From positions 1 to 57,775 of the IMG/VR virus record IMGVR_UViG_3300033996_000257: 57,775 nucleotides of DNA; one strand, written 5' to 3'. The first letter of the stretch is position 1. Every line of letters begins with the position of its first letter. This DNA is from a virus (Duplodnaviria; Caudoviricetes). The notes under the pieces are model-generated. The model saw nothing but the letters and a program-made list of their open reading frames with translations. It did not search any database and was not told the origin of the DNA. Positions 4,996 to 41,310 of the stretch are shown here, one piece after another. Made by a program: the position numbers and the translations under genes.

Positions 4996-6186
4996 ATGAG
5001 TTTCGAGAAGATGACCCTCAACCAACGCATACAAGCGGTCAACATAGACTGCATGCGGCATCCAAAATTTGCACTGCTCAGCGCAGTGATATGTATGGGC
5101 AAGTCTGAGGTATCAGACAAGGTGCCTACTGCATCAACCAATGGGCGTGACAAGAAGTACGGCTCAGCGTTCATCACCCCACTCAACCGCAAGCAACTGC
5201 GGTATCTAGCACTGCATGAGAACTTCCACGTTGCACTCAAGCATTGTGTGTTGTATCGCGCAGAGAACAAGCGCATGCCTAAGCTTTGCAACATTGCTCA
5301 GGACTATGTGGTCAATGCACTCATCGAAGAGCTTGACCCTAACTTCGAGTTTGTTGAACGTCCAACACCAAACCTGTTGATTGACCGCAAGTACTTCGGT
5401 TGGTCTTTCCCTCAGGTACTCAATGACCTCATCAAACAAGGGCGCAAAGAACCCGAAGATGGTGAGGGTGGCGATGACCACGGATACGATGAGCCCATCG
5501 ACGCGCATGAGGATGGTGAGTTTGCTGAGGACGAGAAAGAGAAGCTAGGCAAACAGATTGACGATGCCAATAGGCAAGGCGAGATGCTTGCGCGTAAGTT
5601 AGCAGGTCAAGGTGCAGGTGGTCGTGACATCTTTGGTCATGCCAAGGAACGCATCACTGACTGGATACCCTCCATGCAAGACTGGATAACCTCTGTGTCC
5701 CAAGGTGATGACAACTCACGCTTCTGTCCCCCCAACAAGCGACTGCTTGCGTCTGGCTACATCATGCCATCGCACTACACCGAGACAGTCGGTGAGTTGA
5801 TACTCGCACCCGACACATCAGGTTCTATGTATCCGCACTATCGTCTGCTCTTTGGTGAAATCTCTCGCATCTGTCAGCTAGTCAAGCCCGAGACTGTTCG
5901 CATCTTGTGGTGGGATGACGCTGTGTGTGGCGACCAAGTATTCAAACCAAATGAATATGAACTGATTGCATCTCTCTTGAAACCTCAAGGCGGTGGCGGC
6001 ACAACTCCGCAAGTTGTCGTTGACTACATTCGTGAGCACAAGATAGATGCCAAAGGAATCGTATGGCTGACCGATGGATACCTCGGTTGCGATACGCCTA
6101 GCACCCCGATGCCGTCACTGTGGGGTGTGGTGGACAACGACTCGTTCGTTCCCACTCACGGCAAGGTCTTGCATATCTCTCTTTAA
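4996..6186 (+). CDS. DUF2201-like metallopeptidase fused to a vWA domain
   Basis: TASTNG, HENFH (HExxH), N.A.D..VN; MIDAS DTSGS, GGGGT, LTDG. Confidence 0.88.
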   Translation: MSFEKMTLNQRIQAVNIDCMRHPKFALLSAVICMGKSEVSDKVPTASTNGRDKKYGSAFITPLNRKQLRYLALHENFHVALKHCVLYRAENKRMPKLCNIAQDYVVNALIEELDPNFEFVERPTPNLLIDRKYFGWSFPQVLNDLIKQGRKEPEDGEGGDDHGYDEPIDAHEDGEFAEDEKEKLGKQIDDANRQGEMLARKLAGQGAGGRDIFGHAKERITDWIPSMQDWITSVSQGDDNSRFCPPNKRLLASGYIMPSHYTETVGELILAPDTSGSMYPHYRLLFGEISRICQLVKPETVRILWWDDAVCGDQVFKPNEYELIASLLKPQGGGGTTPQVVVDYIREHKIDAKGIVWLTDGYLGCDTPSTPMPSLWGVVDNDSFVPTHGKVLHISL

Positions 6187-6206
6187 TCAACTCAAGGAAA
6201 GCAATC

Positions 6207-7331
6207 ATGAATCAATATCTCTCTTCTTCTCAAGTCATCGACCTAATCGCCGCTGTTGGTCACAAGCGCACCATCATTGTCGAGGGCGAGAACGGCATCG
6301 GCAAGACTGCGCTGTTCCACCAACTCAAGCGTATGCCTAAGTTTGCCAATCACATTGCCGTTGACCCTATCGACTGCACTCAGTTGTCCGATGGTTCTGT
6401 GTGGATGCCTGACCTTGACCGCGAGAACGGCGTGTCGCGTGAGCTTCCCAATGAACGCTTCGGTGTATCGAAGAACAATCAACGTGGTGTCAATGGTGGC
6501 AAACCAATCATCGCGTTCTTAGATGAGATTGCCAAAGCACCGCAGTTCATCAAGAACGTACTCGCGCCTATCGTGTACGAGCAACGTGTTGGCAACTACC
6601 ACTTCGTTGAGAACAGTATTGTCTTCGCCGCTACCAATCTATCGGTCGAGGGTCTTGGCGATTCCATTCAAGCTCACTTGCGTAATCGTCTTGTGTTCGT
6701 CAAGATGCGTAAGCCGACTGCTGTCGAGTGGGTGCGTTGGGCTACCGATGCGGGTATCAATCCTATGGTCATCGCATTCGTTGACAACAACCCGATGGTG
6801 ATGGACTCGTTCCTCGACTATGAGAAGGGCGGCAAGTATGAGGGCAAGACGTTATCCAAAGACAACGGACACATCTTCAATCCCAAGTCTGTGCAACTCG
6901 CGTATGCAACTCCTCGTTCACTCGCCGCCGCTGGTGATGTCTTGGATGAGGGCATGCACGTACTCGACGACGACACTCTTGAGCAAGCTCTAATCGGTAC
7001 TGTCGGTGTCGTTACTGCTGAGGCGATGGCATCGTTTGTTCGCTTCGGTCGTGACATCTGTGACTATGCACGCGTCATCGCTGACCCTGCTAAAGCACCG
7101 CTGTCCGACAACCCCACTGCGCAGTTGATTCAAGTCTTTCAGTTTGTGTCGCGTGCACAGACGAGAGAAGAAGCGGCGGCAGTTACTGAGTATGTGTGGC
7201 GCATGCGTGCAGAGATGCAGTCAATCTTCTGCAACACAGTGTCCACATCTCAGCGTGTAGGCGTGTTCGTTACCAACACTAACTTCGGCAAGATGTTGGC
7301 TGAGCACAAAATCTTTTTCGGCACCAAGTAA
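6207..7331 (+). CDS. MoxR-like AAA+ ATPase
   Basis: Walker A GENGIGKT, Walker B FLDE, ATN, LRNR, TPRS. Confidence 0.88.
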   Translation: MNQYLSSSQVIDLIAAVGHKRTIIVEGENGIGKTALFHQLKRMPKFANHIAVDPIDCTQLSDGSVWMPDLDRENGVSRELPNERFGVSKNNQRGVNGGKPIIAFLDEIAKAPQFIKNVLAPIVYEQRVGNYHFVENSIVFAATNLSVEGLGDSIQAHLRNRLVFVKMRKPTAVEWVRWATDAGINPMVIAFVDNNPMVMDSFLDYEKGGKYEGKTLSKDNGHIFNPKSVQLAYATPRSLAAAGDVLDEGMHVLDDDTLEQALIGTVGVVTAEAMASFVRFGRDICDYARVIADPAKAPLSDNPTAQLIQVFQFVSRAQTREEAAAVTEYVWRMRAEMQSIFCNTVSTSQRVGVFVTNTNFGKMLAEHKIFFGTK

Positions 7332-9710: not shown

Positions 9711-9919
9711 TATTTGACCGACTACTTGTCGCCGCCGTGTGCTGTTGGCTGGGCGTGACAGGTTTGTTTCCAGCTACAGCAGAACCAGTAAAGCCTCTGA
9801 CCCCAGCGCAGTTGCAAGCCAAGGCCAAACAGAAGTCAATCAGCAACGTATGCAAGGGCAAGCGCAAAAGCCAGACCGTGAAAGATTTGTGCAGAAGATG
9901 GGAGAACCAAAATGCTTGA
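9707..9919 (+). CDS. Small exported or membrane protein
   Basis: Hydrophobic N-terminus, basic C-terminus with a Cys pair. Confidence 0.6.
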   Translation: MIFDRLLVAAVCCWLGVTGLFPATAEPVKPLTPAQLQAKAKQKSISNVCKGKRKSQTVKDLCRRWENQNA

Positions 9920-10079
9920 GAAGATAAGAACGTTCTTTGGAAAAGTTCGTGGACAACACGCAGAGAAGCAAACCATAGTGGTTGAAGGCGACCTGTGGCG
10001 TTGCACAGAGTGCAAAATGCTTTTTCTAAATAGGGTAGTGGGGGAGCAGCACAAATGCCAAGACCAAAAAGTGAACTGA
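9912..10079 (+). CDS. 55-aa Zn-finger protein (not in ORF track)
   Basis: WRCTECKMLF...EQHKC; GGAG SD. Confidence 0.65.
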   Translation: MLEKIRTFFGKVRGQHAEKQTIVVEGDLWRCTECKMLFLNRVVGEQHKCQDQKVN

Positions 10080-10222
10080 CAGGTGTGGCTGTGAGCATCG
10101 GTGTGCGGTTAATCCCTGCACACTATGCAGAATGGAAACGCTTGGGTGGCCCAAAGTGGTTACGCCAAGAGCTATCAAAAAAGATCAAAGAAGCGCAAAC
10201 GCTTCAAAAGAACAAGGGCTAA
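10055..10222 (+). CDS. 55-aa putative ribbon-helix-helix DNA-binding protein (not in ORF track)
   Basis: MPRPKSELT...SIGVRL...EWKRLGGPKWLRQ; GGGGAG SD. Confidence 0.65.
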   Translation: MPRPKSELTGVAVSIGVRLIPAHYAEWKRLGGPKWLRQELSKKIKEAQTLQKNKG

Positions 10223-10376
10223 GCAGGTTTTTCAATTGTGATGTGTGCGAACCTAGTAGATGCGACCACAACATCACGAACAACAACAGCGCTTAGCCTT
10301 TGAGGAAACTGTTGTTGTTCGGCTTTCCAAACGCGAATTGAGGGGGCGCGTAATCTACTTGACCCCCTCACCAATT
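10213..10376 (+). ncRNA. Candidate multi-pseudoknot structured RNA
   Basis: Three hairpins and three loop-mediated pairings in a gap of an otherwise gene-dense arm. Confidence 0.6.
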
Positions 10377-10390
10377 ACCAAGGAAACTGT

Positions 10391-10693
10391 ATGGCATCGA
10401 CACCAGAAGTAAAAGTAAAAAAACAAATCAGGAAGTTGCTTGACGAGCTGGGCGTGTATTACGCCATGCCTATCGGCACAGGCTACGGCAACTCAGGGGT
10501 GCCAGACTTTTTGATATGTGCCAGCGGCATGTTCATTGGCGTAGAAGCAAAAGCGGGGAAGAACAAACCGACCCTGTTACAAGAGGAACACATGCGCCGC
10601 ATAAGAAGCGCAGGGGGTGTGGCAATGGTAGTAAACGAAGACAACATAAACGAACTTAGAGAGGCACTAACATGGAACAAGAACAAGCAATAG
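10391..10693 (+). CDS. VRR-NUC domain nuclease (resolvase-like)
   Basis: TPE..VK, GVPD, GVEAK, PT.LQ. Confidence 0.9.
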   Translation: MASTPEVKVKKQIRKLLDELGVYYAMPIGTGYGNSGVPDFLICASGMFIGVEAKAGKNKPTLLQEEHMRRIRSAGGVAMVVNEDNINELREALTWNKNKQ

Positions 10694-10944
10694 ACCTGTT
10701 GCTCAAGGCAATGTCGGACGAAGAGAAGGCGCACTTCAAAACCACGGTGTTGAAGTTCCTCACATGCTACGGCCCCAACGCAAACCAAGCAGTGCTCATC
10801 ATTAAGAACACAGGCGAAGACCGCTTGGAGGTAGCCACCATGAACCTAGACGAAATGGAGGCAGCGGAAATCATGATCGAAGCCAATGATTTTTTCGGAT
10901 TCTTAAACACTATCGACGCACCCCCTAAAGAGGCATTCAATTGA
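10672..10944 (+). CDS. Hypothetical protein
   Basis: 90 aa, GAGG SD. Confidence 0.75.
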   Translation: MEQEQAIDLLLKAMSDEEKAHFKTTVLKFLTCYGPNANQAVLIIKNTGEDRLEVATMNLDEMEAAEIMIEANDFFGFLNTIDAPPKEAFN

Positions 10945-12908
10945 GCAAACCATTTGACCGAATAATTTCCATCGACTTTGAAACTCGGTGGGACAAACAA
11001 AGTTACACCCTATCCAAGATGACAACAGAGGAGTACATACGTGACAAAAGGTTCAAAGCTTTCGGAGCGTGCATCCATGAATATGGAACTGACAACCCAA
11101 CTGAATGGGTTGGAGGAGATAGATTACGTGAGTACTTTTCTGGAGTGGACTGGGGACGAACCGCAGTGCTTGCGCACAATGCACAGTTCGATGTATCCAT
11201 TATGGAATGGGTATATAACGCCAGACCAACCTTCATCTTCGACACCCTATCAATGGCAAGAGCTTTACGCGGCGTGGAAGTTGGCAACTCCCTTGCGAAG
11301 TTGGCGCTCGACTTCGGACTTCGACCAAAGGGAACGGCAGTACACAGCACTGATGGCCTCACATCAATATCGCCAGAGATTGAAAGAGAACTTGCCGAGT
11401 ACTGCGCCCATGATGTGTACCTGTGCGAAGAAGTTTTCAGTCGGTTCATTAACGGATACCCCAAATCCGAACTGCGTCTGATCGACATGACGCTCAAGAT
11501 GTACACACGACCAACGCTTGAGCTTGACAGCAAGATGCTTATCAAGGCACTGACAGAAGAAGGAGAACTACGTGAAGGACTGTTACAAAGGCTGGGCATA
11601 CAAGAAGCTGAGCTCGCATCGAACCCGAAGTTTGCTGACGTACTTCAAAGCCTCGGGGTTACTCCCCCGACTAAGGTCAGTAAAACTACCGGCAAAGAAG
11701 CGTTCGCTTTTGCCAAGAATGATGCTCTCTTCCAAGCGTTGCTTAACGGTGAACGTGAAGATGTTGCCCTCCTTTGTGAGGCACGCCTTAAAGTTAAATC
11801 CACGACCGAGCGCACAAGGGCACAGCGCTTCCTCGACATATCTCAACGCGGCAAACTACCGGTTCCGCTCTCGTATTACGGCGCTCTCTCGGGTCGCTGG
11901 ACGGCGGCAAAAGGTTCAGCAATCAACATGCAGAACCTCAAGCGAGGCAGTTTCCTACGCAAAGCAATTATGGCTCCCGAGGGCTACCAACTCGTTGTGG
12001 GCGACCTCTCGCAAATTGAGCCGCGAGTACTCGCGTGGTTGGCTGACTATGCAGACATGCTCGACATCTTCAGGGCTGGAGGTGACCCTTATGCGGCCTT
12101 CGGTAGCCAGATGTTCAATATCCCCGGTCTCACCAAAGAATCCCATCCTGATCTGCGGCAGTCGGCAAAGAGCGCGTTACTGGGCTGTGGCTATGGACTG
12201 GGTTGGGCTTCATTCGCTTCGCAACTCCTCACAGGTTTCCTCGGTGCGCCGCCTGTACGGTACTCCAAGGACTTCGCCAAAGCGCTCGGCGTTAACTCTG
12301 AGTACGCGCAGGAGTTTGTCAAGTGGGACGGCAACGACTCCAAGCTGTTCGACATCCCACACACTTGTTCTGATAAAGAACTCCTGACCCATGCCCTTGC
12401 CGCCAAAGCAATCATTGATACATACCGCCGTACTGCTTGGCCTATTGTTTCTATGTGGGGGCTGTTCAATGAGCTTATACACAAGTCGCTGTATTTGGGC
12501 AAAGAGTACACGCACAAGTGTTTGACATTCCGCAAAGGCGAGATAGAATTACCAAACGGAATGAAGCTTCTGTACCCCAACCTACGTCTTGAACAAGATA
12601 CCAAAGGCAGACCGCAGTGGGTGTATGGAGAGCGTGCAACAAAGTTGTATGCAGGTAAGATAACGAACAATGTGACGCAAGCGCTTGCCAGAATCGTGAT
12701 GACGGATGGCATGTTGAGGGTATCGAAGAAGTACCCAATTGCTGGCACGGTGCACGACGAGTTGATCGCTGTTGTGCCTGATGATGAAGTTGTTGACGCT
12801 AAGACTTGGGTCTTGGCGCAGATGACTATGGAGCCGAAGTACATGCCGGGGATACCTCTGGCCGCTGACGGTGGTGCGCACCGTAGATATGGGTTAGCAA
12901 AATCATAG
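10941..12908 (+). CDS. polA: Family A DNA polymerase with 3'-5' exonuclease
   Basis: DFET, HNAQFD, YCAHD; motif A DLSQIEPR, motif B RQSAKSALLGCGYG, motif C VHDE; TTG start. Confidence 0.96.
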   Translation: MSKPFDRIISIDFETRWDKQSYTLSKMTTEEYIRDKRFKAFGACIHEYGTDNPTEWVGGDRLREYFSGVDWGRTAVLAHNAQFDVSIMEWVYNARPTFIFDTLSMARALRGVEVGNSLAKLALDFGLRPKGTAVHSTDGLTSISPEIERELAEYCAHDVYLCEEVFSRFINGYPKSELRLIDMTLKMYTRPTLELDSKMLIKALTEEGELREGLLQRLGIQEAELASNPKFADVLQSLGVTPPTKVSKTTGKEAFAFAKNDALFQALLNGEREDVALLCEARLKVKSTTERTRAQRFLDISQRGKLPVPLSYYGALSGRWTAAKGSAINMQNLKRGSFLRKAIMAPEGYQLVVGDLSQIEPRVLAWLADYADMLDIFRAGGDPYAAFGSQMFNIPGLTKESHPDLRQSAKSALLGCGYGLGWASFASQLLTGFLGAPPVRYSKDFAKALGVNSEYAQEFVKWDGNDSKLFDIPHTCSDKELLTHALAAKAIIDTYRRTAWPIVSMWGLFNELIHKSLYLGKEYTHKCLTFRKGEIELPNGMKLLYPNLRLEQDTKGRPQWVYGERATKLYAGKITNNVTQALARIVMTDGMLRVSKKYPIAGTVHDELIAVVPDDEVVDAKTWVLAQMTMEPKYMPGIPLAADGGAHRRYGLAKS

Positions 12909-21234: not shown

Positions 21235-21421
21235 ACCGGGCACAGGGTTTTTTGTTCCCGGGCTGGATGTTGCAAAGATAAAGGAACTGGGGCTACGCGC
21301 CTCAGTTCCTTACAAGTACCGCACTCAAGCTTTCATTGGTATCAGAAAGGGGTTGATAGGCGTATGGTTTTATCGGAAGCCTCTCTCACCGTACGAGCTA
21401 CGGCGGTCTTTATCTTCCTAA
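21203..21421 (+). CDS. Small hypothetical protein, possibly DNA-binding
   Basis: YPW..LKPG.GFFVP...GVWFYR. Confidence 0.65.
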   Translation: MEIIYPWATLKPGTGFFVPGLDVAKIKELGLRASVPYKYRTQAFIGIRKGLIGVWFYRKPLSPYELRRSLSS

Positions 21422-24400
21422 TCTTGTCAAGTTGTTCGCGCTTAGCTTCTGGTGACATGTTTGATGCGGCAATTGCTCGTTCAGCTTGAGTCAACATGCT
21501 CATATCATTCTTAAAGCTTTGCGCCATTTCAGCCTGCATAAACTCGTTACCGCGTCTTTGCAACAGCGCCTTGGCTTCTGACATCCGCCCCTCTGCCACC
21601 ATTTTGTCGAACGTTTGTTTGACTTTGATATTTTCGTTCATGCGCTCGTACACGCTGTTGATGATGCCGCCAGCATCGTTGGGTTGGAATGCGCCACCAA
21701 GAATTGGGTACTCCGACAAACGTTTAACAGCTTTCTCAGGACTCTCACCCGTAGGCACACCCACACTCAGTGCGTGCATAAACGCAAGCCCCATAGTGCC
21801 GGTGTAACCACTGACCAACTGTTCAAACACAATAGGGGATATGCCAAGCGTCTTGCCAATGCCTTTGGCCAACTCTGATGTGTTGGCGCGGAACTGTTCT
21901 TCTGGCAACAACTCCTTTTCCCGCGCAGACAAGATGTCTCGACCTGTGTAAAACGACTTGCCCAACCCCGCCTCGATGGCCGGTTTCATTATCTGGGGTA
22001 TGCCATAAGACGAACCGCCGGGCACTGTCTGAAGCAAAATTTGTTTGAACGCTTTGACTGCTTCTTCGCTGCCGTGTTCGTTGAGCATGCTGTTAAGCAG
22101 TGCCTCAGGCAACGCCTTGAAAATGTATCCAATTTCAAAAGGCACAGGCAATTTGATTGGTTCATCCAAACCCGGCACACGAATAAACCAATTTCCGTAT
22201 TTCTGGTCAGGGTTAGCATTCTTGTATGCTTCATCGTCTTGCATTAAAGCGGCGTAGGCAAAGCTGGCCACAGCCATCAAAGCACCGCGTTGCATCATCT
22301 TTTCACGTATACGCAACTGCTCGTTGAACGGCATCTTGCCCGTAGCCGCTTTGTACAACACGTTCAGACCTTGAATCTGAGCGTTAAAGAACGGTATCAT
22401 CGAATTGGCTATGTGTATTGATGGTGACGCGCCGCGCTTGTTAAAGTTCATGGACTCCAGCGCCAGCAAAGTTGCCTCCATCTCAGACAGACCTTGCTGA
22501 ATGTAGCTGTTGTACTGGGCGCGACGTGTTGTGGCATCCGCTTCCATACTCATGGCTTCAAGTTTGCCAAGCGCGGTCATCCAGCCCGGCTTACCCTCAG
22601 ACACGTCACGCAGAATTTTGGTCAAGTCCTCAGCGCCACCCACAAACTGCTGGCCTCCGGTAACACCACGGCGCTCAAGAGTCTTTTTGGTAGCGGAGTT
22701 GATTTCTTTCAACGCACCAATGACCGGCATAAAGTCTGCGCCAGAAAGAATAGGCGCGGCCAAGGAATCACGGAACAACTGCTTTGCTGTGTACAAAGGG
22801 CTGAGGGTAATAGCTTTGCGTAATACCTGTGCTGGGAAAGCCATGACGCGCAACATTGCTGGCATCTGTGTTGGAATGCCCTCCATGCCTTTGACAAGTA
22901 TGTCAGCAGGTACGCCAGTATCAAACTCCTTGTTACCAATCTTGACCTTCTCGGTAGCAATCACAGCGTAACGATCTGCGCCATCATCGCGGAATTTAAC
23001 AACGTCAGGGCCAGCAGCCATCTTTACAAACTTAGCAGCCTTCAAGTCCACCAGTTCAAACACAGCGTTCTTGGTAGCCAAGTTACGCATACCCATGTCC
23101 ATTAACAAGTTGGTGTTCTGCACCGAGCTAGTCAAGAAATCAAGGATGGGCCTGTCGCCACCAACAAGTTCATGCAAGTATGGTTGCTCAGCAATACTAC
23201 CAATACGGATGGGGGACTCACCACCAATTAACAGTTCGGCTACGCCGTTGCGTTCACGATAAAACGGGATGTAATCGTTTTCTCTAAGCAAACGTTTACC
23301 AACTTCTTTGGACAGTGCGCCAGTACTGACAACAAAATCAATCAAGTTGCGGTTGTAAGCGTTGTACTCGTCTTTTGCACTTTTGAACACAGCCTCTAAA
23401 CCGGGCGTGGCCTCGATGGCGGCCATAGTTTTATCCAGCAGTTCCTGTGTAACATCCTCACCAAAATTTAGAGAGGACAAACCTTTGTTCTTTGCGCGAA
23501 TAGCAGCCATGTACGTAGTGAACATAGTGTTTACAGCTTCTGCATTGCCAACCATTGGTTGTGCGTCTCTTAGAATCTGCACCACGTTGTTAATGTTGGC
23601 GCTCTCTTTACTCTCCAACACACGCTCAACGCGTCCGTCTGGGCGCGTCTTCTCTACGATTGCCGGTGCGCCGTTGGAGACTGCCTGAGATACAAAGTTC
23701 ATGCGTTGGTCGTACATGCGCAAGTAGTACAGCATCTGGGTGCCTTTAAGCGGCTCCATGTATTTGGCCAAACGCTCGAAGCCTGCAAACCTGTCCACAA
23801 GCTGTGTCTCAAAAGCCAGACCTGTTAAGTTGGCTTTAAGTTTGTCCGTCCAGCTTCTGTCCTTGGCCACGATCTTGTCAACAAAATCGCTGTTCTTGGC
23901 GATTTCTGGATTGGTGTACGTGGCTTTGGTGCGATACAAAATGCCAGACTTGTCTACTTCACCTTCAGCGGCTTGCGTTCCCTCAATCACATACTTGCGT
24001 GCATTGGCAACAATCTGCTTGACCTCGTTGTCAGTCACATTCTCAATACCAAACGTATTGGCCAGCCACTGCTTAATGGCGTTATAGATTTGACGCAGTG
24101 CGCTCTCGTTTGCCGGAGTTGCACCAGTCTCTGCCATCTCTGCCAGCACTTCCTCAACGGCAGTGTTTCTGTCCAGATTGGGCTCAGCCTGCATCTTGGC
24201 GTCGGTTTGTTTACGCACAGCGCTGTTGCCTTCATACACACGGTTCATGGTGCTGGCGTATGTGCCGCCCAGAACTTCCCGCAGACCAAAGTGACCTGCA
24301 ACTTCGTGTGCCAAAGTCATAGCAACATCGTTGCCATTGCCCAAGTTAGAAGCGACCAAGTACACAATCTTGGTGTTGGGGTCGTACAGGCCGGGAATCT

Positions 24401-27400
24401 GACCAGTCTTTTCGTCGCGCTTGGCTTGATCTTGGATTTCCTGTGGCAGACCAGACTCGTTGTCAACAACTTGAATCTCAGGAACATTTGCCCAGTCCTG
24501 CACTATGCGGTTGGTGAGCCGCGTAACTTCCTCGGCCTTCATGCCGTTGCCAACATTCTTGGCAGTGCGGAATAAGCCACGCAGATCAGGAGCTTCATAG
24601 CCCTCGCCGTAAGTACCTTCCTCACGCTCAGCACGCAGGGCATCCGACGCTTGCTCCAAAGTCCTTCTCTGCGGGGCCTTCAATTTGAGGCGTTCTGTAT
24701 CAGCAGCTTTACCAGCGCCCGACCCAGTACGGAAGGGCTTAGCCGCTGCCAACGCAGTGGTGCTCGGCACAGTAGCGGCCTTGGGTGCTTTGGCTGGTTT
24801 GCCTGTAATGAACGCTTGTTTCTGTGCTTCCAGTGAAGCCAGCTTCTGCATAGCGCCCAGTTTGAGCGTTGCTTGCGCACGTTTAGTATTGGTTGCGTTA
24901 GGGTCGGCCATGATGTCGGCCAACTGATTCATGTCTTCTGGCCCTATTAACGCCTGCACTTCACCACGGGCGTCAAAGATCTCGTCATCAAACAGTTGCA
25001 GCTGTTTGTCTTTGACCCTTTGACGTACGGCGGCTTCATCAACCTCTTTTGCCGCCTGCATACCTTTATCGCGCAACTCATCAAGGCGTCTTTGTTCAGG
25101 CGTATTGATCTCCGCAACTTTGCGGCCTTTCTCAAACACTGCGCCGGGTAGGTCTTTGACGCTGAGGCCATCCTTCTTGAACGCCGCAGTAACTTTAGGC
25201 CACCAGACCTTCACATCTTTTTGGAATTCGTCAGCACGTTTTTGTGCTTCGTCAACTACCGCTTGCTGTGCCTTTACTTGCGACGCTATGCGTTGCGCAG
25301 AAAGTGGATACTTGAGTTTGCCCAGTTCGCCCGGTCTGCCGGTCTCAACAGCAGTCAATGGCTCCTTGCGCATGTCGGCCAGTTGACGTTCAAGAATTTC
25401 TAAGTACTCACGCTCTGTCTTGAGGTCTTTGTCAAGCATGGCTTCTGTGACAACAACGTCGTTCTCAATTTCACCAAAACGCAGTTCTTGCAGCTCAGTC
25501 AGTTCTGTTTCAGCGCTTTCAATGTTCTCAACAAGCCCTTGAACTTTCTGCAAGTTGTTAATCAGGTTTGGCGCTTGGCCAGTACCCTCAGTCATCTCTT
25601 TTTTAGCCGCTTCAATTTGTGACTCAACTGTGGCCAGACGTGTCTTGGCAGCTTTTAAAGAACGACGTGCGCGTTCAATCTCAGGATCAAGCAATTCACC
25701 CAACGTATCAGACAAGCGTTGACGGGCTTTGCCCATTGCCGTGGCCATAGCCTTTTGATACGCGTTACGTTGGTTCTGAAGCGCAACTTCTGAGTCAATC
25801 ATTGCGCGTTGACCTTCAGTCAACATAACGGAGGTACGCAAACTTGCTTTGATAAGTTTGAGCTTATCCATCAACGGCTCAGTAACTTTGTTGAGCGCGT
25901 CAGCTTGTTTACGTACAGCCGCATTGTTGTCTTGCATCAGTTCAACTAAACGGTTGTTTGCACCTTCAAGACGTTGGCCCAATGCAAGGGTTTGCAAAGC
26001 TTGCTGAACGTTTTTAGCGTACTCAGGAATTTTGTTTGTGTTGAAGTCTTTGATTAACTTGTCTACCCGCGTTTTTTCTTCCTCAGTAAACACGGACATG
26101 GCTTGTTCTTTTTGTTCTTTTGTTTTGCCAATGTTTTGTTTAGATACTTGCAAGTACCGATCCATCAGCCTCTTGTCTTCTTTGGTAACGCCTGATTCTG
26201 GATAAGACGCAAACATTTTTGCAATGTCTGCGTCCGAGTATTTACCAATGTTGAAGTCTCCCGGCTTAATCAGGAAAAACTGCATTTGGTTTTTAACGCT
26301 TTCAATATTTTCTTTTAGCGCTTCAATCTGTTCAAAGCCTTGTTTGTCTCTAGCAGAACGTGCTTTCTGGTTGGCTTCTGTTTTTGCTTTGAGCTTGCGT
26401 GCCTGATCCAGTGCTTCCCACACAGGTTTGATCTGTGGTGATTTGGCAAAGTTGGCAGGGGTGGCGCGGATATAACCGATGTCTTTGCGAGTCTCGGGAA
26501 ACAACTGACCTTGACCCGGCGCACCTTCACCAGCAATCTCACCTTCTTGGGCTGTACGTTCATACAGCTTTATGGCATCTTGAAGCTCACGCAGTGCGCT
26601 ACCCTCAGGGGCAAGCGCGGCCTCGTAACCCACTGCTTTATATGTGCGGCCACGTTCTCCAAAGCGTGTCTCAGCTTCTCTGCCGGGCACATTCTCAACA
26701 ACACGTTTGCCGGGCACAGCTTCACGGCGGGCATACACCTGAGTGCCAAGGTCTTCGCCGCGCAGGATGCGCTCGGCTTGATTCTGGGCTGCGTCCAACA
26801 ACGCTTTGCTTGCTTTGCCGTCGTCAATGATTGTCTTGACGCGCTCCAGCGCCTCTCTAATGCCTTGAGTGCGGATAGGGCCGTCTTCAGTTTCTAAGAC
26901 TGCGCCTTCTGGGATGTTCCGTGTCAGCGCTTTGTCAATCATGTTGCCCACGTACTCACGCAGGCGGCGCATCTCCCCGCCAGCCGTCTTGGCTGTCTCA
27001 CCTCTGGCTTCTGCAACTTTCTGCGCTTCTGTGGAAGCAAACTGCTGTTTAAGCAGAGGTGTCTCGCGGGTAGCGGTGAACGGCAACTGAGACAGGCTAT
27101 CAACAACGCTGGCAATCTGAGCTTTGAAGTGCTTAATTTCTTTATTGCTGGCGGGCATTTCTTTGATTTGCTCTGCCATAGGGCGGGTATCAACAAATTC
27201 CCAAACAAACGGAAGCGTACCTTTGTCCAGCAACTCTTTTATTTGTTTTCTGATAACCGCATTAGTCCTAACGTCTAGTGCAGCAGCGGCAGAATCCACA
27301 TTTGTCACCGGTTTAATTTGTGCTTCTAAAGCAGCAAACACTTTTGTAGGTTTTTTAACCCACTCACCTGTGCTGGGTGCACCCGCAGGAACTTTAGACG

Positions 27401-29792
27401 GCGGTGTCTCACTGTATCTACGTTCAGTGATTGCGCCTCGGATAGTCTTGCCTGCGCGTTTCTGCGCAGGTTGCACAATTACTTCTTCGTATTTGGGTTT
27501 TTCCGTAAATTTCTGTACGGGCTTTACTTTTGAACGATCAATCCATTCACCCACCACATCATGAATGCGCGACGCAGCTTTGATTGCTTCGTCATATGTC
27601 AGTGAGGGTTTACCCGCAACACGGCGGTGGATAGCGGCTTCTTCCAACACAGCGGAAATGTATTTACCACGGGCATCTTCAGCTTGTTTGGCCAACACAT
27701 CAGGGGTAGCAGCAGCCACACCTTTGCCGGGTTCTGCCTTTTCTTTACCCAGAGCATCACCACGACGCAGACGGTCAATCTTGTCTTCAATTGCGTTCAA
27801 AGCTGTGTTCTGCTCATTGCGAACACGTAGTACTTCTTTGGCGTAGATGCTGGCTTGTGGGCTTACCTTGGCGCTGGGGAAGCGGCCTTTTGTCAGCTCT
27901 CCTGCTGGGGCTTCCGCAGCAAAAGCGTTAATTTGTTCAAGCGCTTGGTTCTCTCTTTCAAACGCAGCAGTGGCGGCATCTTGATTGTTTGAACGCTGCG
28001 CAACATCTCTATCCGTATTTGCCTGATCTATTTCATCAAGCAACTCGTTAATCTTGGTGCGCACCCGTTCAGCTTGTTTGGGCTGCATAAACGGCATCAA
28101 CTGAGGATTCACCGCTACTACTGGGGGTTTACCCTCAGCAATCTTTTCCAGCTTTGGCTGAATTATGTAATCAAAGAACGAGTCATCCCCAACGTTGTTA
28201 CGTCGGTCTTTAAGCTCGTCCATGTAGGAAGTAAACGCCTGTACATAGGGCGATTCTGTTTCTATAGGTTTGGCGGCACCGAAAGCTGCTTTGCGTGTCT
28301 CCATCTCCTGCTTAAAGCCCGGAGCAATTTGTAACTTCAGTGCATCCAACACCGCAGAGTTACGCACACCGGCAGGCAAACCGGGCAACTGCATGCGCTT
28401 ATTTACAATCTGATCCGCCAACACTGGGTTACGCATCAAGTATTTAACGTAGTCGGCCACCGCATCGTTGGGAGATTTTTCACCAGCAAGCTGTTGTTCG
28501 TTGGCCAACTGAATACTCTGCGCAGCGTGTTGCGCTACAACATCTTCTACCTTCGGTGCCGCAGGCGGCGTGGCAATCTGCTGCTCATAAAACTCAGGCT
28601 CAGCCTGCGCTTGTGGCGCGGCTTGCTCCGGCTCCATGCCCAACGCATACTCGTATGGGGTCAACTTAGCAACCCTTGCTTCTTCCGCAGCACGTTTCAG
28701 AATAGGCTTGACACGCACATACTCGTCAGCCAGCGGTTTAAGTTCTTTGTTTATGGCATCAATCTGGCGATTGACTTCCCGGTTGTTTGCGTAGTCTGTT
28801 TCTGGTGATACGCCTTTCTTTATTGGTATCAACTGCTGTTTGAGCGCAGTGCGCTGAGCTTCCAAGTCCTGCGTCTTTTGAAACACTTCTTGTGCGTACT
28901 CGGGACTGTTCAGCCGAACCTTTTCTTCTTCCTGCTGTTTCTCTGCTTCAGCGCGGGCTTGTTTTACTTCGTCAGTGATTGGTGTTGTTGGGGCACGGCG
29001 ACCAATAGCCAAGTCCAAAAGACCTTGCGCCAACGCACCGACTGCACCGCCGTAAGCGGCGGATTCTCCAACCTGCTCAATAATTTCTTGTTCAGGCTTG
29101 TATATACCTTTGCTAATAATGTTCTGTGCGGCTTGCGATGCGGCTTCTTGCGCGGCTTCCTCACCGCCTGCCATCAACGCACGTTTTACGTAAGACGTAG
29201 CGCCATCAAGTACCGGCTCTCCAAGACGTTTCAGAATACGTGTGGGGGCAAACATCTCTGTCGCACCAACAGCGGCACCCAACAAAGTGGAGGCGGTTTG
29301 TTGTCCTTCAGTTGCCCCCTCAGCGGCAGACTTCTCTACCTGTGTGCCAGCACCAGCGCCAATACCAAGGCCGTAGCCTGCAACACGCCCAGCCATACCA
29401 AACGGGCCGGTGGCAACAAACGGCAAAAAAGAACCCGTAGCTTCACCAAACTTACGCCCCACCGTGTCCTCGTACCCCGGCGCAGCAGCAAATGGAGCTT
29501 TGGCTGCGGCGGCTTTTTCTTTGATGTACTGTTGTGCGGCTTTTTCTTGCTCATTGGGCAACAGCGCGGAAATACCAATACCGGCTTGCTCAGTGAGGCC
29601 AATGGCTCCGGGCACAAGCCCTTTAAAGAACTCTTTTGTCTGCCCGCCAAACGTAGTTTCTTGTGTTTTTTGTGCAGGCTGCGTAGCTATTTGCCGTTTT
29701 ACAGCAGCAACAATATCTTGTTCAGAAGCGCCAGCAGGCCCCTCCACATCGTAGATCCGTCCGTCCGGGCCTTGTACGCTGTAAATTGGCAT
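21342..29792 (-). CDS. 2816-aa polyvalent internal virion/ejection protein (metallopeptidase-like plus LPD38-like C-terminus)
   Basis: N-terminal Gly/Ala hydrophobic helices; long coiled coil; GLYDP...LAHEVAGHFGLR...EEVLAE; NFNKRG..IPFFNA.IQG, LPVPFEIG. Confidence 0.8.
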   Translation of the reverse strand: MPIYSVQGPDGRIYDVEGPAGASEQDIVAAVKRQIATQPAQKTQETTFGGQTKEFFKGLVPGAIGLTEQAGIGISALLPNEQEKAAQQYIKEKAAAAKAPFAAAPGYEDTVGRKFGEATGSFLPFVATGPFGMAGRVAGYGLGIGAGAGTQVEKSAAEGATEGQQTASTLLGAAVGATEMFAPTRILKRLGEPVLDGATSYVKRALMAGGEEAAQEAASQAAQNIISKGIYKPEQEIIEQVGESAAYGGAVGALAQGLLDLAIGRRAPTTPITDEVKQARAEAEKQQEEEKVRLNSPEYAQEVFQKTQDLEAQRTALKQQLIPIKKGVSPETDYANNREVNRQIDAINKELKPLADEYVRVKPILKRAAEEARVAKLTPYEYALGMEPEQAAPQAQAEPEFYEQQIATPPAAPKVEDVVAQHAAQSIQLANEQQLAGEKSPNDAVADYVKYLMRNPVLADQIVNKRMQLPGLPAGVRNSAVLDALKLQIAPGFKQEMETRKAAFGAAKPIETESPYVQAFTSYMDELKDRRNNVGDDSFFDYIIQPKLEKIAEGKPPVVAVNPQLMPFMQPKQAERVRTKINELLDEIDQANTDRDVAQRSNNQDAATAAFERENQALEQINAFAAEAPAGELTKGRFPSAKVSPQASIYAKEVLRVRNEQNTALNAIEDKIDRLRRGDALGKEKAEPGKGVAAATPDVLAKQAEDARGKYISAVLEEAAIHRRVAGKPSLTYDEAIKAASRIHDVVGEWIDRSKVKPVQKFTEKPKYEEVIVQPAQKRAGKTIRGAITERRYSETPPSKVPAGAPSTGEWVKKPTKVFAALEAQIKPVTNVDSAAAALDVRTNAVIRKQIKELLDKGTLPFVWEFVDTRPMAEQIKEMPASNKEIKHFKAQIASVVDSLSQLPFTATRETPLLKQQFASTEAQKVAEARGETAKTAGGEMRRLREYVGNMIDKALTRNIPEGAVLETEDGPIRTQGIREALERVKTIIDDGKASKALLDAAQNQAERILRGEDLGTQVYARREAVPGKRVVENVPGREAETRFGERGRTYKAVGYEAALAPEGSALRELQDAIKLYERTAQEGEIAGEGAPGQGQLFPETRKDIGYIRATPANFAKSPQIKPVWEALDQARKLKAKTEANQKARSARDKQGFEQIEALKENIESVKNQMQFFLIKPGDFNIGKYSDADIAKMFASYPESGVTKEDKRLMDRYLQVSKQNIGKTKEQKEQAMSVFTEEEKTRVDKLIKDFNTNKIPEYAKNVQQALQTLALGQRLEGANNRLVELMQDNNAAVRKQADALNKVTEPLMDKLKLIKASLRTSVMLTEGQRAMIDSEVALQNQRNAYQKAMATAMGKARQRLSDTLGELLDPEIERARRSLKAAKTRLATVESQIEAAKKEMTEGTGQAPNLINNLQKVQGLVENIESAETELTELQELRFGEIENDVVVTEAMLDKDLKTEREYLEILERQLADMRKEPLTAVETGRPGELGKLKYPLSAQRIASQVKAQQAVVDEAQKRADEFQKDVKVWWPKVTAAFKKDGLSVKDLPGAVFEKGRKVAEINTPEQRRLDELRDKGMQAAKEVDEAAVRQRVKDKQLQLFDDEIFDARGEVQALIGPEDMNQLADIMADPNATNTKRAQATLKLGAMQKLASLEAQKQAFITGKPAKAPKAATVPSTTALAAAKPFRTGSGAGKAADTERLKLKAPQRRTLEQASDALRAEREEGTYGEGYEAPDLRGLFRTAKNVGNGMKAEEVTRLTNRIVQDWANVPEIQVVDNESGLPQEIQDQAKRDEKTGQIPGLYDPNTKIVYLVASNLGNGNDVAMTLAHEVAGHFGLREVLGGTYASTMNRVYEGNSAVRKQTDAKMQAEPNLDRNTAVEEVLAEMAETGATPANESALRQIYNAIKQWLANTFGIENVTDNEVKQIVANARKYVIEGTQAAEGEVDKSGILYRTKATYTNPEIAKNSDFVDKIVAKDRSWTDKLKANLTGLAFETQLVDRFAGFERLAKYMEPLKGTQMLYYLRMYDQRMNFVSQAVSNGAPAIVEKTRPDGRVERVLESKESANINNVVQILRDAQPMVGNAEAVNTMFTTYMAAIRAKNKGLSSLNFGEDVTQELLDKTMAAIEATPGLEAVFKSAKDEYNAYNRNLIDFVVSTGALSKEVGKRLLRENDYIPFYRERNGVAELLIGGESPIRIGSIAEQPYLHELVGGDRPILDFLTSSVQNTNLLMDMGMRNLATKNAVFELVDLKAAKFVKMAAGPDVVKFRDDGADRYAVIATEKVKIGNKEFDTGVPADILVKGMEGIPTQMPAMLRVMAFPAQVLRKAITLSPLYTAKQLFRDSLAAPILSGADFMPVIGALKEINSATKKTLERRGVTGGQQFVGGAEDLTKILRDVSEGKPGWMTALGKLEAMSMEADATTRRAQYNSYIQQGLSEMEATLLALESMNFNKRGASPSIHIANSMIPFFNAQIQGLNVLYKAATGKMPFNEQLRIREKMMQRGALMAVASFAYAALMQDDEAYKNANPDQKYGNWFIRVPGLDEPIKLPVPFEIGYIFKALPEALLNSMLNEHGSEEAVKAFKQILLQTVPGGSSYGIPQIMKPAIEAGLGKSFYTGRDILSAREKELLPEEQFRANTSELAKGIGKTLGISPIVFEQLVSGYTGTMGLAFMHALSVGVPTGESPEKAVKRLSEYPILGGAFQPNDAGGIINSVYERMNENIKVKQTFDKMVAEGRMSEAKALLQRRGNEFMQAEMAQSFKNDMSMLTQAERAIAASNMSPEAKREQLDKIRKIKTAVARTVREASDKTIRLSTPF

Positions 29793-39885: not shown

Positions 39886-41310
39886 TCAGGCGGTACGCTG
39901 CCACATGTAAACAACAATGTATGGCTGCAAGTTTGCGTTTGTTCCTGACACGCCAGATGATGTGACCGATGTTGATGCGGTAATGCCTGTGGTTGCTGAA
40001 TTTGTGCTGAAGGGGTTGCCCGGGTTTGAGTTTGAGAACATACCGTTTGCAGTCGTGCCGCCAGCATAGTTAACAGCAGTGGTGTGGAAGTGACCCGGAT
40101 CAGTAATTGAGGTGCTTGCCGTGTGAGTATGGCTAACAACAACTGCATCTGCGCTACCGCCTGTTGCGCCAGCAGAGAAACCGCCGCCGTTACCAATGAG
40201 CGTTCTGCCTGCGGCAAAGGCTGTCCATGTACCAAAGCCAAGGGACGTGCCGGGGTTGGTTGCAGATGTGCTGGAGTAGATTGCCCCAACAGGAAACAAC
40301 AAATTACCAACAAGCGTTGCAATTGCCGAAGCAGTGGTTACGCCTGTACCGCCTGAAGCCACTGCCAAAGTTGCAGACAGGCCAGCCGCTGTTCCAGTTG
40401 TATTTTGATTCAGCGTGGGGAATGTGCAGTTGGCGAGGTTGCCAGAGGCTGGCGTACCGAGCGCAGGAGCTGTCAGCACTGGGCTGGTCAAGGTCTTGTT
40501 AGTTAAAGTTTCCGAACCCGCCAAGGTCGCCAATGTGCCGGTTGTAGGCAATGTAATAGAAGTAGTGGCAGTTGAAGTCAGTGTTGTCGCAAACGCACCC
40601 GATGTGGTCAATGCCCCCGCAGTAGACACGTTTCCGCCAAGCGTAATTGTCCGACCGGTATTCGCTACGCCTGTACCGCCGTTTGCGCCGGGCAAAACAC
40701 CTGTGATGTCGCTGGTGCTGATGTCAACTTGATCCCAGCTTGTGTTTGTGCCGTCGGATTTCAGATACTTCCCGTTGGCGCTTCCTTGGCTCGGGGCCAA
40801 AGCATTGAAAGCCGTGTTGGCTGTAGTTTGCCCGGTGCCGCCGTTGGCAATAGCCAAAGTTCCAGTTAAATTTTGAGCTTGCAGCTCATTAAAGTTTGTG
40901 CCGTCAGACCACACCATGACTTTTGCGCCATTGGTCACCGTGACGCCTGTGCCCGCTGCGGTGGTGTTACCAATCACAGTCGAGTTGTAGAGGATCATCG
41001 AGTAACCGCTGTTGTTGTACACGATGTACTGCTTGGGCACCGGGGGAGCATAGACGTTGAACGCCGCGCCGGTAGTTGTTGTGAAGCGCAGCATGGCGTA
41101 CACAGACTGGTTCAATGCCGCAGTTGTGGTCGGGCCGTTCAAATAAGTCAGAGCTTGGCTGGCACTTGTGACACTGACGGTCTGATACCCGGCAATAGCG
41201 ACATCAAAAATGTTTGAAAAGTTGCCGTTTGTGGTTGCCCCCCACGCACCGGCTTGGTCTCCTGAACCAACTAACTCTACCCGAAGGCTGTTTGAATATG
41301 TGCTGCTCAT
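39886..41310 (-). CDS. Tail fibre-like protein with baseplate gp10-type C-terminal domain
   Basis: ANGGTG repeats, TLTNKTL, FPVGAIY...NP...GTW, NLQPYIVVYMWQRTA. Confidence 0.8.
   Translation of the reverse strand: MSSTYSNSLRVELVGSGDQAGAWGATTNGNFSNIFDVAIAGYQTVSVTSASQALTYLNGPTTTAALNQSVYAMLRFTTTTGAAFNVYAPPVPKQYIVYNNSGYSMILYNSTVIGNTTAAGTGVTVTNGAKVMVWSDGTNFNELQAQNLTGTLAIANGGTGQTTANTAFNALAPSQGSANGKYLKSDGTNTSWDQVDISTSDITGVLPGANGGTGVANTGRTITLGGNVSTAGALTTSGAFATTLTSTATTSITLPTTGTLATLAGSETLTNKTLTSPVLTAPALGTPASGNLANCTFPTLNQNTTGTAAGLSATLAVASGGTGVTTASAIATLVGNLLFPVGAIYSSTSATNPGTSLGFGTWTAFAAGRTLIGNGGGFSAGATGGSADAVVVSHTHTASTSITDPGHFHTTAVNYAGGTTANGMFSNSNPGNPFSTNSATTGITASTSVTSSGVSGTNANLQPYIVVYMWQRTA

Follow-up and report, generated by a model that had tools for sequence, protein, structure and literature searches.

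The locus considered here raises a simple question: What is the stretch that stands directly before the replication operon of an uncultured phage, and what could it do there? The window, that is, the whole stretch of DNA analyzed, comprises 57,775 bases and constitutes an entire IMG/VR virus record. Within it, the region 10213–10376 separates an open reading frame (ORF) for 55 amino acids from one for 100 amino acids, the latter encoding a VRR-NUC-like endonuclease (Table 1). A sequence-only reading had recognized in this region three hairpins whose loops all find long-range complements and had proposed a compact RNA of unrecognized family held by six helices, with a ribozyme, a riboswitch-like leader, and a nuclease-resistant RNA as possible roles. 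Covariation in 89 distinct homologues supports a compact RNA with loop-mediated tertiary pairings: Six helices, which we name P1, H1, H2, S1, H3, and K, are conserved through compensatory change. The set is not quite the one proposed, as five of the claimed helices covary (H1, H2, H3, P1, and K), one is a chance match, and S1 had been missed. Positions 10213–10369 form one copy of a conserved, non-coding, and multiply pseudoknotted RNA that an uncultured phage clade carries as a discrete cassette, placed after an early gene and before the operon of the VRR-NUC-like nuclease and PolA.

Homologues were collected through the neighboring protein and through the element itself. An IMG/VR search with the nuclease protein, which is blind to the RNA, returned 149 relatives, 80 of which were kept as loci; blastn with the element matched 62 of these 80, and a covariance model added one more, L028. 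Together with the window, the blastn set contains 38 distinct sequences, which hardly vary in the H1 loop or anywhere in the H3 region but differ in their stems. Members beyond the 80 protein-found loci, which are the unbiased set, were retrieved by motifs from H3 and loop 3. A strict motif scan gave 85 stretches; a looser one gave at least 117, about half of them unrelated G+C-rich palindromes, but divergent true members were gained. Ten of the 99 unique candidates from these expressions, G+C-rich palindromes without the loop-3 motif, were removed prior to alignment. The protein search and the motif scans together provided the 89 distinct homologous sequences, all from uncultured IMG/VR phages. 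They were aligned with plain MAFFT (A1), and a covariance model built from H1, H2, and H3 only (R1) was used for a realignment of 91 loci (A2), which score 46.8–155.9 bits, the window itself 144.5 bits.

In A2, the six-helix structure pairs 79.6% of the cells versus 65.3% in column shuffles, which ignore the relatedness of the sequences; 833 cells are changed on both sides compared to 340 in the shuffles, and the covariation score of 0.376 (0.155 shuffled) was reached by none of 500 shuffles. Sliding the partners by 1–3 columns as a control leaves 39–51% paired, and the plain MAFFT alignment agrees (73.8% versus 64.1%; 0/500 shuffles). K, S1, and P1 are absent from the model that made the alignment, yet 99.0, 98.9, and 80.4% of their cells are paired, the last figure referring to the nine core pairs of P1. 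Moreover, G–U cells exceed A–C cells (306 versus 198), which together with the gene orientation indicates an RNA of the + strand. The folding energy of this strand is −58.2 kcal/mol versus −46.0 ± 4.0 kcal/mol for shuffled sequences (z −3.06; one of 200 shuffles as good), and z is −2.38 for the − strand. The minimum-energy fold takes the long-range helix P1 and not H2; a nested drawing has room for only one of the two.

At the level of the individual helices, P1 joins the 5′ end of the element to the loop of H2. The sequence-only reading had described it as 12 bp with one G–U that cover the upstream stop codon TAA (10220–10222), and the homologues bear this out by compensatory changes: All nine core pairs are changed on both sides, and the outer three (10213–10215/10300–10302) are weaker with 57.5% paired. 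In an alignment-free partner swap, the cognate P1 duplex has a mean energy of −20.3 kcal/mol versus −12.4 kcal/mol for non-cognate combinations, and z is below −2 in 73 of 87 sequences; L104 and L134 were left out of the P1 and H2 swaps because the P1/H2 domain is missing in both. The perfect 12-bp stem H2 was likewise correctly placed. All its 12 pairs are changed on both sides and 70.9% of the cells are paired, in an alignment that was fitted to H2, and the alignment-free arm swap yields −19.4 versus −10.5 kcal/mol, with the cognate arm among the best 10% for 75/87. H1, too, lies where it had been drawn and shows compensatory changes, with covariation in the pairs adjoining the loop (e.g., UA50/GC18/CG12); here the arm swap gives −11.6 versus −6.4 kcal/mol and a cognate arm within the best 10% for 76/87. 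A pair overlooked earlier and found by a mutual-information scan, C10252–G10262, closes the apical loop and is 100% paired (CG78/GC10/UG1). The columns of H1 and H2 score lower (55–71%) owing to register shifts between subfamilies.

The loop–loop helix K, already seen as AGTAGAT facing ATCTACT, is kept through compensatory changes as well. Four of its seven pairs covary (AU56/UA24/GC6; GC84/AU5; UA82/CG7; GC73/UA10), ten perfectly complementary 7-mer combinations occur among the 89 sequences and an eleventh in L028, and eight sequences have one mismatch or wobble. S1 contains two covarying pairs (CG59/AU22 and GC62/AU26) and a further compensated variant in L028. H3 had been drawn with eight pairs (10339–10346/10363–10370); the complementarity is present and seven pairs are nearly invariant at 98–100% paired, whereas the eighth, T10339–A10370, is unpaired in 76/88. 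The remaining helix of the sequence-only reading, AACCT (10250–10254) with AGGTT (10225–10229), exists as a complement in the window, but 52.7% pairing versus 51.2% in shuffles, 60 of 500 of which score as high, led us to reject it as chance.

These helices combine into two pseudoknots. The strand order 10331–10335, 10340–10346, 10347–10351, 10363–10369 reads S1a–H3a–S1b–H3b; because S1 encloses the 5′ strand of H3, the two form a classical H-type pseudoknot, with loop 1 at 10336–10339, zero nucleotides between H3a and S1b, and loop 3 at 10352–10362. The topology of P1 with H2 is also H-type, and K links the H1 loop to loop 3 of the S1/H3 pseudoknot, where its 3′ strand (10353–10359) lies. The element measures 157 nt and has about 40 near-invariant nucleotides; its near-invariant core takes in the G-tract helix, the ACC tail, the flanks of the H1 loop, and the first positions of loops 1 and 3. 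Two minimal variants, L104:8797–8926 and L134:993–1122, keep H1 and the S1/H3 pseudoknot and have a plain 8-bp hairpin in place of P1/H2. Since a simple hairpin can substitute for it, the P1/H2 domain is peripheral, and the core consists of H1 plus S1/H3 (≈85 nt). We also rejected a helix that would close the element by pairing the 5′ flank with the 3′ tail and so join stop and start, as the mean z of this pairing is 0.03 in 87 sequences.

Table 1. Features of the element and its flanks in the window.
Feature	Position	Strand	Details
Upstream 55-aa ORF	10055–10222	+	From the ORF list; stop TAA 10220–10222 within the P1 5′ strand
P1 5′ strand	10213–10224	+	Conserved core 10216–10224; partner 10291–10302 in the H2 loop
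Hairpin H1	10238–10277	+	10238–10247 with 10267–10277; loop-closing C10252–G10262; apical loop 10253–10261 holds the kissing 7-mer
K 5′ strand, AGTAGAT, in the H1 loop	10255–10261	+	Partner 10353–10359 (ATCTACT)
Hairpin H2	10278–10320	+	10278–10289 with 10309–10320; loop contains the P1 3′ strand (10291–10302)
Linker with conserved pyrimidine motif	10321–10330	+	TTTCC 10324–10328 in the window
S1 helix	10331–10351	+	ACGCG 10331–10335 with CGCGT 10347–10351; encloses the H3 5′ strand
H3	10340–10369	+	GAGGGGG 10340–10346 with CCCCCTC 10363–10369; G10340–C10369 to G10346–C10363
Tail ACC(A), Shine-Dalgarno site, and start codon of the VRR-NUC-like gene	10370–10393	+	AAGGAAA 10380–10386; ATG 10391
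VRR-NUC-like endonuclease gene, 100 aa, head of the replication operon	10391–10693	+	PHROG 93 "endonuclease", E 3.4e-15
PolA (family A DNA polymerase)	10941–12908	+	Pfam and PHROG matches

The element belongs to no family that we could search for. Rfam 15, with 4227 models that include all known riboswitch and self-cleaving ribozyme classes as well as pRNA, ROOL, and GOLLD, gave no match in the whole window at the gathering score, in line with the earlier impression of an unfamiliar RNA, and two chance-level matches around the element (E 7.6 and 8.1); ten divergent member loci gave three matches at E 2.8–4.7, none common to two loci. An intrinsic terminator was rejected: The H3 loop of 16 nt is followed by ACCAATTACC, and the terminator scan found no + strand site in 10213–10376, in agreement with the previous remark that a U-tract is lacking. 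A repeated promoter or terminator was rejected as well because each contig has one copy (85/85 stretches of the strict scan, exactly one model match in each of the 91 realigned loci, and the window's own record); the 8-mer of loop 3 recurs once in the window, at 40275 on the − strand, which is within chance. Two ORFs that overlap the element, 10260–10412 (+) and 10219–10374 (−), were rejected as protein-coding, given that element lengths spread as 29/28/32 over the classes modulo 3. A stop-free frame exists in 54/89, near the hand-estimated chance level for six frames of about 47 codons, and Pfam yielded no matches for ORFs overlapping the element.

Bacterial or prophage members were not obtained either: A motif scan of 185,579 prokaryote species genomes gave five stretches, which match the model over the H3 hairpin only (17.8–25.3 bits, model positions 133–170) and are not members. 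Among cultured phages there is no DNA match to the window, and the loci of the closest nuclease homologues there (Pseudomonas phage Rollin and Xanthomonas phage Xp15, 41% identical) are without the element. The literature searched, outside the supplementary tables of PMC10690425, contains no description of it. That study (Fremin, Bhatt and Kyrpides 2023) reports candidate structured RNAs of IMG/VR phages, hence from the same data source, with 879 candidates ≤25 nt upstream of genes with known domains; a leader of a nuclease, VRR-NUC, or polymerase gene does not appear in its main text, and the element may already be an unnamed entry among its 10,006 candidates. The available part of another report, bioRxiv 10.64898/2026.09.22.753630, concerns RT-associated arrays and is unrelated to the element. 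A structured and pseudoknotted leader is a known kind of object; this architecture with its built-in stop codon is undescribed as far as checked.

The position of the element between its neighbors is as characteristic as its fold. The upstream stop codon begins inside the 9-nt P1 core in 62/89 loci, at the same column in 52 of them, and in a further 22 at most 12 nt ahead of it. That stop ends an open frame of at least 40 codons in 84/89, which makes the placement meaningful, the stop itself having been picked within a 47-nt search frame. Its second and third positions vary between A and G with compensating P1 partners (GC45/AU23 and AU36/GC26); consequently, these bases serve the helix as well as the stop signal. 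At least ten unrelated families are represented among the ORFs that enter the element (the largest with 23, 18, 12, and 6 members). The last two to four codons of these unrelated proteins come from the element, the products ending in …N-K-G-stop in the group of the window and in …S-K-D-stop in another, so that the cassette rewrites the C-terminus of the gene it lands behind. On the other side, the start codon follows H3 by 13–26 nt in 73/86 (median 21), with a Shine-Dalgarno site about 10 nt past H3. The first downstream ORF is the nuclease in 60/86 and a small unrelated ORF in the other 26, and the nuclease is within reach in 77/89 loci.

The element is absent (no model match at E 0.01) from 16 related loci whose upstream sequence is long enough to judge; in element-free loci, the upstream ORF runs up to or into the start of the nuclease gene. 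Because two of them, L042 and L063, share their upstream protein family with the element-bearing L113, the difference amounts to a clean indel: About 190 nt are present or absent as a unit, with a stop codon and a Shine-Dalgarno site included. In L042, L063, and L065–L079, the upstream stop overlaps the Shine-Dalgarno site or start codon of the nuclease gene, the usual form of translational coupling; where present, the element replaces this coupling with an untranslated gap of about 170 nt. The small protein that starts with MPRPK… and is encoded 5′ of the element in the window (10055–10222) lies directly 3′ of it in L175, and the order of gene and element is thus not fixed.

Considering fold and position together, our best reading, held with middling confidence, is a new cis-acting structured leader RNA that is riboswitch-like or factor-sensing. 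We favor a leader in cis over a free-standing non-coding RNA (ncRNA) gene because the stop codon lies in P1, the ribosome-binding site follows about 10 nt after H3, and the element is on the strand of the operon. In such a mechanism, the RNA would be transcribed as part of the + strand operon transcript, and upstream translation would end at the entrance of the fold. In three metatranscriptome runs from the same study, nothing aligned to this stretch, a result that favors neither presence nor absence of expression. A ribosome footprint usually extends 12–15 nt beyond the A-site codon and H1 starts 18 nt after the stop codon; a ribosome that finishes the upstream gene would therefore open P1 and halt short of H1. 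The compact core would occupy the landing place of the 30S subunit directly 5′ of the Shine-Dalgarno site and could there set the translation level of the replication genes, most likely by binding an effector, for which a small ligand, a replication protein of the phage, and a conserved factor of the host all come into question. The near-invariance of this core suggests that sequence as well as shape is recognized, and a conserved aptamer-like fold with covariation, as required of a riboswitch, was found.

Several observations weigh against this reading, some against the fold and others against the function. Related sequences inflate the shuffle statistics, and therefore the count of independent pair types outweighs those figures. 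The near-invariance of H3 and loop 3 is in part by construction, as the motif scans made use of this region. P1 and H2 may alternate and not coexist because both together need a 6-nt loop that spans P1. Regarding function, no general conserved pairing hides the ribosome-binding site: Duplexes between tail and element are no better than with shuffled tails (mean z −0.40; 13/86 below −2, concentrated in one subfamily), and the complementarity of the linker motif YTCC, present in 66/85 homologues, to the Shine-Dalgarno site is barely above that of shuffled linkers (mean run 4.04 versus 3.62). Metabolite riboswitches usually precede several gene families, and the element accompanies a single type of operon. 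Within 3 kb, no protein family sets apart the loci that carry the element, the best cluster confined to them being present in 31/89, and the element is accessory inasmuch as close relatives live without it.

The tail and linker tests thus leave sequestration of the Shine-Dalgarno site by the element unsupported in general. In L095, L101, L153, and their relatives (Shine-Dalgarno sequence AGGAGGT), about 12 bases of the Shine-Dalgarno region could pair with the 3′ arm of H2 (−19.9 kcal/mol, z about −3), a match that points to a possible subfamily-specific expression platform; it was not seen in the window's own subfamily. Only tentatively would we go beyond the leader and suggest a new functional RNA class, namely either a riboswitch that times the replication genes through a host metabolite or nucleotide pool, or a self-cleaving or RNase-P-directed mimic of the tRNA acceptor, in both cases with a built-in translation sensor. 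The sensor would follow from the upstream stop codon being part of P1, such that each terminating ribosome opens the fold.

The failure to find an expression platform in the tail-duplex and linker tests also speaks for a self-cleaving ribozyme or a processing and stability module, in which the fold would self-cleave or offer a host RNase a place to cut; this could separate early from replication transcripts or protect the 5′ end of the downstream mRNA. Ribozymes are frequent in phage genomes, and a double-pseudoknot core with near-invariant nucleotides is typical of the small ones. Moreover, H3 (7 bp) and S1 (5 bp) are stacked without an intervening nucleotide, and RCC follows directly after H3 in 67/89 with a complete ACCA in 23/89. 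By the substrate rules of RNase P, such a 7 + 5 bp coaxial stack followed by ACC might be processed by analogy to the acceptor and T arms of a tRNA. On the other hand, no known ribozyme class or tRNA-like family matches (ARAGORN finds no tRNA or tmRNA gene in the window), 18/89 have U in place of the second C of the tail, and neither a fixed distance to the start codon nor a built-in stop codon is needed by a mere cutter. In principle, cleavage or processing fits the architecture equally well and explains the spacing of the stop and start codons less well; overall we consider it unlikely.

A special case of the leader, with a phage protein as effector, would be an operator that is autogenous only: The fold would mimic a nucleic-acid substrate to which the nuclease or polymerase of the operon binds, thereby repressing translation. 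The constant linkage to the nuclease/PolA operon and the location directly 5′ of the ribosome-binding site are consistent with it, and phage replication proteins do bind their own leaders, as those of T4 genes 32 and 43. Nevertheless, the core stays invariant though the nuclease diverges to 68% identity, the 26 of 86 loci in which another ORF comes first do not suit it, and a 157-nt triple-pseudoknot fold far exceeds known protein operators in size, which renders this version quite improbable.

Covariation is blind to whether K forms within or between molecules, and kissing loops are known to assemble RNAs: The pRNA of phi29 multimerizes through them, and ROOL and GOLLD RNAs are multimeric. 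An ncRNA acting in trans could hence pair its H1 loop with loop 3 of a second molecule to give dimers or rings with a role in replication or packaging, and kissing-loop multimers among phage RNAs appear in the available part of bioRxiv 10.1101/2024.12.08.627333. Against this, which we regard as very improbable, stand the linker length, which allows K within one molecule, the embedding between stop codon and ribosome-binding site, the scans, which detected no promoter or terminator signals of its own, and the absence of pRNA, ROOL, or GOLLD matches in Rfam. Finally, an element acting at the DNA level (a replication origin, single-strand initiation site, hairpin promoter, or protein operator) would suit the adjoining replication genes and the inverted repeats but is scarcely credible in view of the covarying pseudoknotted and loop–loop pairings, the G–U over A–C excess on the + strand, the GC skew without a turn at 10.2 kb, which led us to reject an origin, the single copy, which is at odds with a repeated promoter, and the promoter scan, which found no sigma-70-like site inside.

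ORF list, Pfam, and PHROG confirm the earlier statement that the gap directly precedes the nuclease/PolA operon, in which the nuclease is succeeded by a 90-aa ORF, PolA, a PD-(D/E)XK exonuclease, an SNF2 helicase, and a DUF927 primase/helicase, all on the + strand like the genes that flank the element. The 100-aa nuclease, for which Pfam gave no match at E 0.01, shares ≈40% identity with phage proteins that carry the annotation VRR-NUC or Holliday junction resolvase; the upstream 55-aa ORF has a single weak PHROG match of unknown function. Elsewhere in the window, an HNH endonuclease of 396 aa (4996–6186, +; PHROG 1314, E 1.6e-57) is encoded among the early genes, and its ORF overlaps the following, ATPase-like one (6120–7331) by 67 nt. 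The first gene of the − strand arm is an ORF of 2816 aa (21342–29792, −) in which Pfam recognizes an LPD38 "large polyvalent protein" domain (E 2.3e-30). A terminator-like hairpin with a 6-bp stem, a 3-nt loop, and a T-run (10001–10024, +) lies inside the ORF 9912–10079 about 200 nt 5′ of the element; the number of terminator-like sites in the region, four found versus 2.0 expected, is within the shuffle range.

Kept in about ninety related uncultured phages, the element is a promising candidate for an RNA with a new regulatory or catalytic function. It stands at the entry to the DNA-replication module of a clade found in many metagenome samples, behaves as a portable cassette with its own stop codon and ribosome-binding site, and may offer a handle on the phage switch from early to replication genes. 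With 157 nt and a smaller core, it is a small and well-defined target for biochemistry and structure determination; even if it were only a structural insulator, it would still provide a clean natural case of an RNA helix that also encodes a stop codon. Two pseudoknots tied by a covarying kissing helix and some 40 near-invariant nucleotides are rare among structured RNAs, and such RNAs have in the past usually proved to be riboswitches, ribozymes, or ribosome-directed elements.

Several known systems are comparable in part. The intergenic-region internal ribosome entry site (IRES) of dicistroviruses has a similar size (≈160–190 nt), likewise contains three pseudoknot-type pairings, and is also located between the stop of one ORF and the start of the next; however, it belongs to eukaryotic RNA viruses, replaces the initiator tRNA, and works without a Shine-Dalgarno site, whereas the element is followed by an ordinary Shine-Dalgarno site and ATG, and there is no sequence or model match between the two. 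By analogy to tRNA-like structures and RNase P model substrates, the element has a 3′-proximal strand that pairs into a hairpin loop, which yields a 12-bp coaxial stack (7 + 5) followed by A-C-C, and its hairpin loop may dock at the far end of the stack as in the tRNA elbow; in contrast to these structures, it is internal and not at a 3′ end, and its CCA is complete in only the 23 of 89 loci. The operators of T4 gene 32 and gene 43 are, like the element, structured leaders before phage replication genes, but they consist of one small pseudoknot or hairpin plus an unstructured tract and not of a 157-nt, six-helix fold; the gp32 pseudoknot is mentioned in the main text of PMC10690425, whose IMG/VR candidate RNAs, as far as that text describes them, are the same kind of object as the element and likewise stand before genes. 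With the H-type pseudoknot aptamers of the preQ1-II/III, SAM-II/V, and guanidine-III riboswitches, the element shares a compact pseudoknot shortly before the ribosome-binding site, a near-invariant core, and variable peripheral stems. It differs from these classes in that it matches no Rfam model, that the tail and linker tests found no general alternative sequestering the Shine-Dalgarno site, and that its architecture is its own: The partner of loop 3 is the loop of another hairpin, and the fold has a second pseudoknot domain.

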